DNA from: a phage
Sequence record: PZ402300.1
Reading direction: 5' to 3' (one strand)
DNA: 64,000 nucleotides
Every line of letters starts with the position of its first letter. The stretch's first letter is position 1. Positions 25,839 through 27,222 of the stretch are shown here, one piece after another. The position numbers were made by a program, and so were the translations under genes. The notes beneath the pieces were generated by a model. It was not told where the DNA came from. It was given only the letters and a program-made list of their open reading frames with translations, and did no database searches.

Positions 25839-25943
25839 ACACTCATGCCGTGCACGACACTAGTACCTACACCGGAATTAATTGCCAGGGATTACACCTG
25901 GCTCCATCTGTTTTTATAGTCACTCAGATATCGTCTGGACTTG

Positions 25944-26060
25944 TTGTGTTTGCATTCCACAACGGAAAGAGCACTGGAACTTGGGCTGGGTATTACCGCA
26001 TGTCTTTCGACTTCGAACCAAGGCTGACATTACCCAATGCTCTTACCTGTTGTGTGTTGT
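25944..26060. repeat. Structured repeat unit 1 (CACAACGGAAAGRGCACT … AATGCYCTTACCTGTTGTGTG)
   Basis: Arms CACAACGG and CCTGTTGTG are complementary, enclosing ~90 nt; second copy ~200 bp downstream. Confidence 0.4.
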
Positions 26061-26157
26061 GGAGTGACGCACCATCTCACTCTTGAATGTTAACCCACTC
26101 CCAGCCCAGCAACACACGCTACGGTTAAGATTATTGCGCGCGCTGTATGGTCTTGCT

Positions 26158-26250
26158 GGTCACAACGGAAAGGGCACTTAACAGAAGATAGGTCTGATTG
26201 CCTCGGATGATTTCTCAGTAGCCTAAATGCCCTTACCTGTTGTGTGCCCA
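26158..26250. repeat. Structured repeat unit 2 (degenerate copy of unit 1)
   Basis: Same terminal motifs as unit 1 (CACAACGGAAAGGGCACT … AATGCCCTTACCTGTTGTGTG). Confidence 0.4.
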
Positions 26251-27222
26251 TTATTAATCACAGCGGGCCACTGCGCCGAATTTGTTTACAAGGAATCGGA
26301 AGACCCTGCTGACTTACAGGCTATTACGCCACCATCAGAACAACATCATCGTTTGCATTTATGTTATTGGTTCGTTTCTAAAAAACCGCATAATCGCTTA
26401 CGAAAACTATCAAAGAGTACACTAAGCACAGGTAGCTATCCTGCCGTCTTCTCCATCTACACCGGCTACAGTGTAAACCTCCGCACGTTAGCTTAATGTA
26501 CTCATTGATAGGATGTCATAATAGGGGAGGGAGGACGAGTCCCTCTTTACCCTATGATTTAGTTTACATGTAAGACCTAACATTTCAATGCTGGATGGAT
26601 AGCGTAATGAACTATCCGACATTAATGGTTAATGTTGTGCTCAGCATGAGCGTTAGTTGATAAGGGATCTGAAGCCTTATCCCAAAGATACTAACCTTTG
26701 GGATATAGCCTAAGATTCAGAAATGGCCCCTATAGGGAGAGGCCATTGATTAACCCGAATGTTGCTTTACATTTGCTGTGATAACCCATTCTTAAAATAG
26801 TCTACCTGACGGATGGGCATCAACCCTAGCGTCAGTGCCATACGGCAAAGATTAAGCTAAGAAAGGTTATGATAGGAGTTCCTATCTCAAAGGATTCTAA
26901 CAGAACCCTTCACGATATTAACTACTCAATGTGAAATTCTTTGATTCCTTCTACAGGTTCTACACCCAAGAAAAAGCTAATTTTTCCATTTAGTTTAGAT
27001 TGAACCAATGGACTGGGGAGAGTATTCCAATCCACTGGTTCGGTTGTTGTTGTTACTCTGGCGGCTTGTCACCACCGTGTTTACCACTGCATTTCCACAG
27101 GATAATGACAGTGATGATAAAAGCTATGTATGGAGCCGACACGTCTATAATCCTGACCAGTAGTAGCATCAGGACTATAAACACTACCACACCTAGCAGC
27201 AGCTTCTGAGCCACCTACCAGA

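Follow-up and report, generated by a model that had tools for sequence, protein, structure and literature searches.

Structured RNA modules on the minus strand of an N4-like Escherichia phage include an element with the anatomy of a tmRNA message half

The window analyzed here is a stretch of phage DNA of 64,000 nucleotides (nt; sequence record PZ402300.1) from an N4-like Escherichia phage of the genus Gamaleyavirus. The analysis shows that conserved structured RNA modules, arrayed on the strand of the tRNA genes, make up the block between about 27050 and about 24830, and every RNA gene of this block lies on the minus strand. Several of these modules, hereafter called units, are small RNAs with variable structured interiors which are clamped by a conserved helix of about 18 base pairs (bp) containing a fixed U.U mismatch. 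Between two of them, units C and A, lies an element which has the anatomy of the message half of transfer-messenger RNA (tmRNA), including coding constraint on a 10-codon tag, and is devoid of a tRNA-like domain. Taken as a whole, the block is best read, with a rough probability of 55%, as a minus-strand RNA transcription unit of interchangeable structured modules, in which the tag element would serve as a tmRNA-type template. Over 2.45 kb around this finding, the DNA is 90-96% identical, in a mosaic fashion, to the phages EC1-UPM, St11Ph5, PhAPEC5, IME11 and G7C-like phages.

The tag element and its parts are located as follows:

26246-26410, minus strand: tmRNA-like tag element without tRNA-like domain, recognized from weak Rfam tmRNA matches, a relaxed ARAGORN call, alignments and covariation
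26321-26356, minus strand: tag reading frame GCA AAC GAU GAU GUU GUU CUG AUG GUG GCG UAA UAG, encoding ANDDVVLMVA followed by two stop codons
26309-26338, minus strand: hairpin similar to tmRNA helix 5 (CUGA/UCAG) around the tag end and the stop codons, alignment columns 102-105 with 128-131
26276-26308, minus strand: first pseudoknot after the tag, stem 1 CAGGG/CCUUG, stem 2 CCGA/UCGG
26246-26275, minus strand: second pseudoknot after the tag, stem 1 CGCAGU/GCUGUG, stem 2 GCCC/GGGC

From its 5' end, the element consists of a leader (GUUUUCG...GCGG...AGAAAC), a resume context (AUAAAU), the 10-codon tag frame, the helix-5-like hairpin and two H-type pseudoknots. The weak Rfam matches cover 26427-26275 on the minus strand (tmRNA_permuted, E = 0.004; beta_tmRNA, E = 0.0035), and the tag frame of the window is preceded by AUAAAU and opened by GCA AAC GA. 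The coding signature has been established on 160 copies, obtained by two pattern scans of IMG/VR and from loci of annotated phage and E. coli collections. All 160 copies contain 10 codons counted from GCA, after which the stop codon, be it TAA, TAG or TGA, keeps a fixed position, and the encoded peptides follow the pattern AN[DE]xxxL[AMI][AV]A, as illustrated by HK620 (ANEEMYLAVA), the Felixounavirus VpaE1 (ANDNVFLAVA) and Vi01 (ANDNTFLAVA). Codon changes are synonymous for the last alanine (GCU, GCC, GCG or GCA) and for leucine (CUG or UUG), while elsewhere variation is conservative, position 4 staying polar and position 6 hydrophobic. The two remaining frames hold stops in 22-28 of 30 unique sequences. 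When the family profile is compared with E. coli ssrA, it aligns over the tag only, in register with ANDENYALAA. An alternative short open reading frame (ORF) beginning AUG CAA ACG... was ruled out, its residues being unconserved.

The structure of the element was assessed on an alignment of 95 sequences, using the helices found by RNAalifold together with two crossing stems. RNAalifold returns three helices, corresponding to the stop-codon hairpin, stem 1 of the first pseudoknot and stem 1 of the second. Overall, 96.7% of the 2185 alignment cells are paired, against at most 45% when the partners are slid along the alignment; changes on both sides are found in 12 of 23 pairs (215 cells) and none of 500 shuffles reaches the observed values. 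The helix-5-like hairpin is paired throughout (100%), its inner pair being GC 62 times and AU 33 times. Similarly, 99.5-99.6% of cells are paired in the first pseudoknot, where 5 of 9 pairs have changed on both sides, and stem 1 of the second pseudoknot is 99.6% paired with two compensatory pairs. Stem 2 of the latter is wholly different between groups, occurring as GCCC/GGGC, GACGGGAG/CUCCCGUC, AUCC/GGAU or GCCCUGA/UCAGGGC.

The missing tRNA-like half was sought by several approaches. With default settings, ARAGORN reports no tmRNA in the window, and none among 171 loci save the E. coli ssrA control and two artefacts which borrow flanking tRNAs; applied to the whole HK620 genome, it finds neither tRNA nor tmRNA. 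Relaxed thresholds led to many contradictory permuted-tmRNA calls which are not credible, the tag alone being consistent between them, and the window element is called as permuted only at the 80% threshold and with an implausible domain. The match to the Rfam model RF00023 is limited to the message and the pseudoknots (in VpaE1, model positions 56-294 of 374), and in this phage the whole element is confined to 250 nt between tRNA-Ile and tRNA-Arg. Upstream of the element, where a two-piece tmRNA would have its acceptor piece, a unit, a promoter or an ordinary tRNA is found instead. At the level of gathering scores, 15 loci gave tRNAs only; gathering or E-value scans of 19 loci and the region returned no known family beyond tRNAs and partial tmRNA matches, and no covariance-model match in the region was obtained for Rfam families including Y RNA/YrlA, ROOL, GOLLD and ribozymes.

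Three candidate partners were considered and rejected. Unit interiors carrying T-arm-like hairpins, both upstream and downstream, are unfit as a tRNA-like domain and not general in the family. At 25870-25809, a mini tRNA-like element of 62 nt has a C3-G70 pair and is likewise not general. The tRNA-Ala(cgc)-like gene of St11Ph5 has U3-A70 and not G3:U70, and the window is devoid of this gene; in St11Ph5, it is inserted (locus L113, 2003-2074) between unit C and a further structured RNA of the array, module E, described below.

Among enterobacterial phages and prophages, which are in part unrelated, carriers of the tag element number in the hundreds; they include P22-like, Felix O1-like, Vi01-like, T1-like and N4-like phages, and the element retains 70-93% identity across at least five unrelated phage groups. 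It is also present in 147 of 5,426 complete E. coli genomes (~3%) and annotated in none of them. A scan of species representatives, with one genome per bacterial species, identified three Enterobacterales prophage copies of the message, the other matches being a chance one inside a Spirochaetales ORF and two on contigs of metagenome-assembled genomes. ARAGORN found no tmRNA in these six loci, and therefore no bacterial tmRNA carries the message of the tag element. In the searchable literature and open papers, no description of the tag element or of the unit family was found.

Several carriers provide the element with a promoter of its own. TTGACA-N17-TATAGT lies just 5' of the element in VpaE1 (locus L002, about 2690-2720) and TTGACA-N17-TAGATT in T1-like contigs (locus L105, about 3030-3060), from which it follows that the tag RNA likely starts a few bases before GUUUUCG. 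The presence of such near-consensus sigma-70 promoters in lytic Felix O1-like and T1-like phages implies transcription by the host RNA polymerase, independently of the neighboring tRNAs. In HK620 and E. coli prophages, the element is located between pR'/qut and the terminator (tQ) ahead of the holin gene. The most divergent copy, on the IMG/VR contig L089, encodes the tag ANDNQYLAVA and has its own promoter-like site, with a long hairpin and a U-run about 330 nt downstream; it looks like a self-contained transcription unit without units or tRNAs.

In the window, the tag element is embedded among three clamp-helix units and an inverted repeat:

26158-26246, minus strand: unit A, closing stem CACACAACAGGUAAGGGCAUU / AGUGCCCUUUCCGUUGUG, 47-nt interior, missing from St11Ph5
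25958-26056, minus strand: unit B, same closing stem with AAGAGCA/UGCUCUU, 60-nt interior
26411-26507, minus strand: unit C, diverged, closing stem CUAUCAAUGAGUACA / UGUACUCUUUGAUAG, U.U mismatch kept
26053-26113, minus strand: nested inverted repeat GUGUGUUG..GGAGUG...CACUCC.CAACACAC, read from the sequence, its 3' strand overlapping the 5' arm of unit B

The arms of units A and B are repeats of the DNA, with CACAACGGAAAGRGCACT at 25958-25975 and 26161-26178 and AATGCYCTTACCTGTTGTGTG at 26036-26056 and 26226-26246 (repeat families D5 and D6). As minus-strand RNA, both units read 5'-CACACAACAGGUAAGRGCAUU...AGUGCYCUUUCCGUUGUG-3', and in each of them about 18 positions pair between the two ends, interrupted by a bulged A and a U.U mismatch; a single compensatory change, G-C to A-U, separates the two closing stems. 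Unit C keeps the same shape through compensatory changes. Minimum free energy folds of the minus strand form the closing stems in all three (z = -2.8 for A, -3.8 for B and -4.9 for C), and none of 200 shuffles is as stable as unit C.

Extension to IMG/VR loci delivered 95 unique units, in which 86 different interiors and 65 arm pairs can be told apart and which share one conserved closing stem, NNNN(A)GG-U-AAGRGCAUU ... AGUGCYCUU-U-CCNNNN, which units A and B match directly and unit C through its compensatory changes. The inner helix is 97-98% paired. At one of its positions, 58 arm pairs have G-C and 6 have U-A, and the third stem position is nearly always a U.U or C.U mismatch. Several classes can be distinguished by the outer 4-8 bp (CACAAC/GUUGUG, GAAAUCUGG/CCAGUUUUC and CUAUC/GAUAG). 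Between phages, the interiors are themselves conserved, with compensatory changes seen by eye in one interior family, and some hold a T-arm-like hairpin beside the 3' arm. Within the stems, 30 G.U cells were counted against 4 A.C cells. Unrelated phages contain the same modules, and in every case their orientation is that of the tRNAs or of late transcription. This asymmetry and the constant co-orientation indicate that the helices are RNA helices formed on the tRNA strand.

By blastn, 25880-26640 matched 875 phage records from unrelated groups, and none of these matches overlaps an annotated RNA gene or a named protein. A 99% identical copy of unit B is found in the siphovirus Salmonella phage seszw. 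In St11Ph5, unit A and the nested repeat are absent and the junction is at the repeated arm; modules thus appear to be exchanged at their arms, which fits recombination.

A sequence-only reading of this region had reported a long-range stem repeat in two copies, and its arms are indeed at the places given, with complementary ends and stems that fold with the z-scores of units A and B. It had the arms enclose about 90 nt, a length which corresponds to the whole unit (about 90-100 nt in the window), the enclosed interiors being of 47 and 60 nt. The nested inverted repeat it described, GTGTGTTG...CAACACAC with inner GGAGTG/CACTCC, is visible at 26053-26113; one fold of the shortened stretch gave no signal. 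Its proposal of structured non-coding RNAs agrees with the compensatory changes, with the tolerance of G.U over A.C (30 vs 4) and with the co-orientation of modules in unrelated phages. The comparison with related genomes that it suggested has revealed conserved repeats belonging to the family of 95 unique units, and the Rfam scan it also suggested, run over 24700-27400 with E up to 1, returned two tRNAs, tmRNA matches below threshold and no other family. The statement that no convincing ORF exists on either strand holds from 25880 to about 26920, where no conserved ORF was found; it fails at the right end, which contains a 53-aa ORF (27214 to 27053) and a gene remnant (26993 to 26925). The tag frame, the third unit and this small ORF were absent from that reading.

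On this basis, a mechanism can be proposed. The array, which follows the replication genes and ends at an intrinsic terminator, would be co-transcribed with the tRNAs. The clamp helices may insulate the modules and direct their processing, for instance as targets of RNase III-type cleavage, and may also provide recombination joints at which modules are swapped. Ribosomes would then read the frame of the released tag RNA as a tmRNA-type template, and the phage would set the peptide added to stalled nascent chains, with ...L-A/M-A/V-A in place of the host ...ALAA. The acceptor function would come from outside any phage tRNA-like domain, presumably from host Ala-tmRNA/SmpB or from another partner. 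That the free-standing message is really translated, which would amount to a rescue template route not covalently tied to an aminoacylated tRNA mimic, is a more demanding claim and we regard it as doubtful; candidate routes are the hijacking of host Ala-tmRNA/SmpB or a structure-driven entry at the Ala codon.

Several points weigh against this proposal. The function as a whole is one that we infer from sequence features, and that RNase III would cut the clamp helices is guessed from their length and shape. To our knowledge, no mechanism loads into a stalled ribosome a message which is untethered to an aminoacylated tRNA-like domain. In the conserved 5' leader (GUUUUCG..GCGACUUUGCGG..AGAAAC), where an equivalent of pseudoknot 1 (PK1) would be expected, RNAalifold found no supported helix and covariation is unconvincing. 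A crude search with RNAduplex for pairing between the tag RNA and E. coli tmRNA gave complementarity not above that of shuffled controls. Finally, the tag of the window (LMVA) is unique among the 160 copies, and the window copy could therefore be drifting.

A feature located next to unit B has to be considered together with the alternative explanations:

25941-25954, minus strand: UGCAAACACAACAA, complementary over 14 nt without mismatch to the R1 seed of the host small RNA GcvB, in the linker just 3' of unit B

A complement of 14 nt was reached in none of 200 shuffles. The site is predicted to be unpaired with a probability of 0.74, and the predicted duplex energy is about -27 kcal/mol. In addition, 5 of the 11 CACAACA copies of the window fall within 25942-26639, all on the minus strand (25942, 26048, 26055, 26238 and 26633), and this motif is the GcvB target consensus used by the prophage anti-small RNA AgvB (PMC4104026). 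In St11Ph5, the site contains one A-to-G change and is still pairable as G.U.

The main rival to a template that is read by ribosomes is a non-translated decoy, in which the tag element would mimic the message and pseudoknots of tmRNA and titrate a host factor (S1, RNase R or SmpB), damping or redirecting host trans-translation during infection. We hold this to be possible and entertain it tentatively, as it fits the missing tRNA-like domain and the strong conservation of the pseudoknots, and has a precedent in a tRNA-like-domain-only molecule which inhibits tmRNA, the phage DS6A RNA of which it would be the mirror image (PMC4131195, PMC11915505). It does not fit the coding signature, since a decoy has no need of an open frame, yet the frame is always of 10 codons, its stop position is kept with all three stop codons in use, and tag variation is synonymous or conservative. 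Coming back to the GcvB site, the 14-nt complement and the motif cluster suggest an AgvB-like sponge in a lytic N4-like phage, and one may ask if the region, or its version in the window, is mainly such a host small RNA sponge, whose exposed CACAACA-type sites would titrate GcvB and thereby relieve the repression of amino-acid and peptide uptake. In lambdoid prophages, AgvB is found downstream of pR' and has the same motif (PMC4104026). This explanation is nevertheless unlikely for the region as a whole: across 158 loci, long GcvB complementarity is no better on the tag strand than on the opposite strand and is thus not a family feature, the majority of CACAACA copies are part of the clamp helix, where they pair with GUUGUG, AgvB is an RNA of other architecture, and neither the tag frame nor the pseudoknots would be accounted for. 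We therefore treat the GcvB site as a probable lineage-specific extra rather than a family-wide function.

Explanations at the DNA level appear very unlikely. They include a replication origin or a packaging site, both put forward by the sequence-only reading, as well as mobile DNA resembling miniature inverted-repeat transposable elements (MITEs) or attC sites, with the arms as terminal inverted repeats. In their favor, close relatives differ in the modules they contain and the breakpoints fall at the arms, the block sits at the end of the replication module, and the outer helix CACAAC...GTTGTG is loosely similar to integron core sites. However, the bias for G.U over A.C and the compensatory changes are strand-specific RNA signatures, and module orientation always follows transcription. 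An origin or packaging site is not supported: no iterons and no AT-rich tract were found in the region, whose direct repeats are arms and T-arms only and whose GC content (43-46%) resembles that of its flanks; GC skew flips near 24000, with the change in gene orientation, and not inside the region. HK620 carries the element in its late leader and has its annotated origin about 5 kb away, within gene O. The modules are accompanied by no integrase or transposase. Integron attC sites, MITEs, repetitive extragenic palindromic (REP) and enterobacterial repetitive intergenic consensus (ERIC) sequences, retrons, clustered regularly interspaced short palindromic repeats (CRISPR) and YrlA-like units were all dropped, given the lack of an associated enzyme, of a direct-repeat architecture or of an Rfam match and the RNA-type G.U signatures. 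Least probable of all is decaying tRNA or tmRNA gene debris without function: degenerate tRNA-like remnants do occur in the tRNA island, a gene remnant lies at 26993-26925 and the window tag variant is unique, but debris would hardly be conserved at 70-93% identity in at least five unrelated phage groups, nor show covariation, a constant frame length and its own promoters.

Besides the tag element and the units, the array and its borders contain the following features:

26520-26716, minus strand: module E, structured RNA of about 190 nt, recognized by blastn, fold z = -4.3 and compensatory hairpin changes seen by eye
25092-25870, minus strand: tRNA island, with tRNA-Ile (25092-25166), a second tRNA (25172-25247) and degenerate T-arm elements
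24826-24856, minus strand: intrinsic terminator, AAGUCCCUCUUCGGAGGGAUUU then a U-run, closing the RNA array
27053-27214, minus strand: 53-aa ORF starting at GTG and encoding two hydrophobic helices, from the ORF list and tblastn, outside the RNA array
26925-26993, minus strand: truncated gp47.2-like gene remnant of 23 codons, from tblastn of St11Ph5 gp47.2

Module E is common to Gamaleyaviruses and to an intergenic gap of the unrelated Suseptimavirus ECBP2, a phiEco32-like phage (locus L170, 1501-1696). Its opening hairpin pair (AUAUCGUGAAGG...CCUUUGAGAUAGG..CCUAUC) recurs at 26925-26870 on the minus strand, where the copy overlaps a promoter-like site with an extended -10 (TTAATA-16-TGtTAGAAT). 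In the tRNA island, the second tRNA scores 42 bits with Rfam and is given a two-base anticodon (ac) by ARAGORN, which points to an aberrant anticodon arm. Several elements between 25380 and 25870 on the minus strand have a good T-arm (GGTTCGAATCC-like) and an acceptor-like stem, with bodies too short or too long for a tRNA, and two elements of the island end with an encoded ACCA (25809-25812 and 25683-25686). ARAGORN with default settings and Rfam at E up to 1 do not call the T-arm elements of 25380-25870 as tRNAs; in relatives, they are labeled variously tRNA-Cys, tRNA-Thr, tRNA-OTHER and tRNA-Pseudo.

A terminator is annotated in PhAPEC5 at the position equivalent to 24856-24826 of the window. 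According to the ORF list, a plus-strand ORF of 3479 aa (13358-23797) stops just left of the block. To its right, the minus strand encodes a Sak4-like annealing protein, a single-stranded DNA-binding protein (SSB), a RuvC-like resolvase and a 146-aa protein without assigned function. By tblastn, the 53-aa ORF is found in 70 N4-like Escherichia, Klebsiella and Shigella phages with 76-100% identity, being identical in St11Ph5; its GTG is 8 nt past the stop of the upstream gene, and most relatives leave it unannotated. The gp47.2 remnant shares 15 of 23 residues with its St11Ph5 counterpart, which is intact at 56 aa, and ends with TAG, having neither a start codon nor the C-terminal half.

The tag element represents a conserved message-only form in model phages (such as HK620, relatives of Felix O1 and of Vi01, T1-like and N4-like phages) which has been missed by annotators despite the coding constraint on its frame and the covariation of its pseudoknots. 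If it is translated, it bears on how a rescue template reaches the ribosome and would mean that phages manipulate protein tagging, putting ...LAVA or ...LMAA in place of ...ALAA as the degradation tag on stalled proteins of the host or the phage. If it is a decoy, it would represent a new way to interfere with ribosome rescue. The clamp-helix units constitute a large family of small RNAs, found neither in Rfam nor in the literature searched, which explains mosaic non-coding gaps in many phage genomes; should the proposed mechanism hold, they would be a modular system to express and exchange small phage RNAs.

What defines a tmRNA is that it joins a tRNA-like half to a message half. With one-piece tmRNA (SsrA), the tag element shares the resume context (AUAAAU, then GCA AAC GA), a 10-codon tag of the AND...A type in register with ANDENYALAA, a stop codon within the equivalent of the helix 5 hairpin, H-type pseudoknots after the tag, and an Rfam tmRNA match at this very place. 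Unlike one-piece tmRNA, it has no acceptor stem, T-arm, CCA end or closing helix 2, has two pseudoknots after the tag instead of three and about 165 nt instead of about 360, ends its tag with LAVA or LMAA instead of ALAA, and is phage-borne, often beside tRNA genes. The coding piece of two-piece (permuted) tmRNA is also a separate RNA with a tag frame and pseudoknots, and permuted models give the best Rfam and ARAGORN matches; nevertheless, a real coding piece begins with the 5' strand of the acceptor and pairs with an acceptor piece whose gene lies just upstream, and the tag element has neither.

As for the units, the RNase III stems around rRNAs and in T7 early RNA are long helices of flanking sequence around a cargo RNA in a polycistronic RNA operon, and RNAs C and D of the T4 tRNA cluster are small stable RNAs co-transcribed with phage tRNAs. 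The units have no known sequence relationship to either, and differ by reusing one clamp sequence around dozens of unrelated cargoes. The prophage anti-small RNAs AgvB and AsxR share with them a neighborhood downstream of pR' in lambdoid prophages and the CACAACA motif targeting GcvB. By its description, AgvB is set apart from the units: it is an Hfq-binding RNA of 51-60 nt with a conserved 42-nt 3' domain and terminator, belonging to the EcOnc01-03 group (PMC4104026), whereas the units are of 90-120 nt, helix-clamped and in sense orientation. Among phage tmRNAs, the tmRNA database papers list only those of mycobacteriophages and Bacillus phage G, which are complete, and the tRNA-like-domain-only form of mycobacteriophage DS6A (PMC4131195, PMC11915505). 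Like the tag element, the DS6A RNA is a phage-borne half of a tmRNA; unlike it, DS6A keeps the tRNA-like domain without the message, while the tag element keeps the message without the tRNA-like domain.

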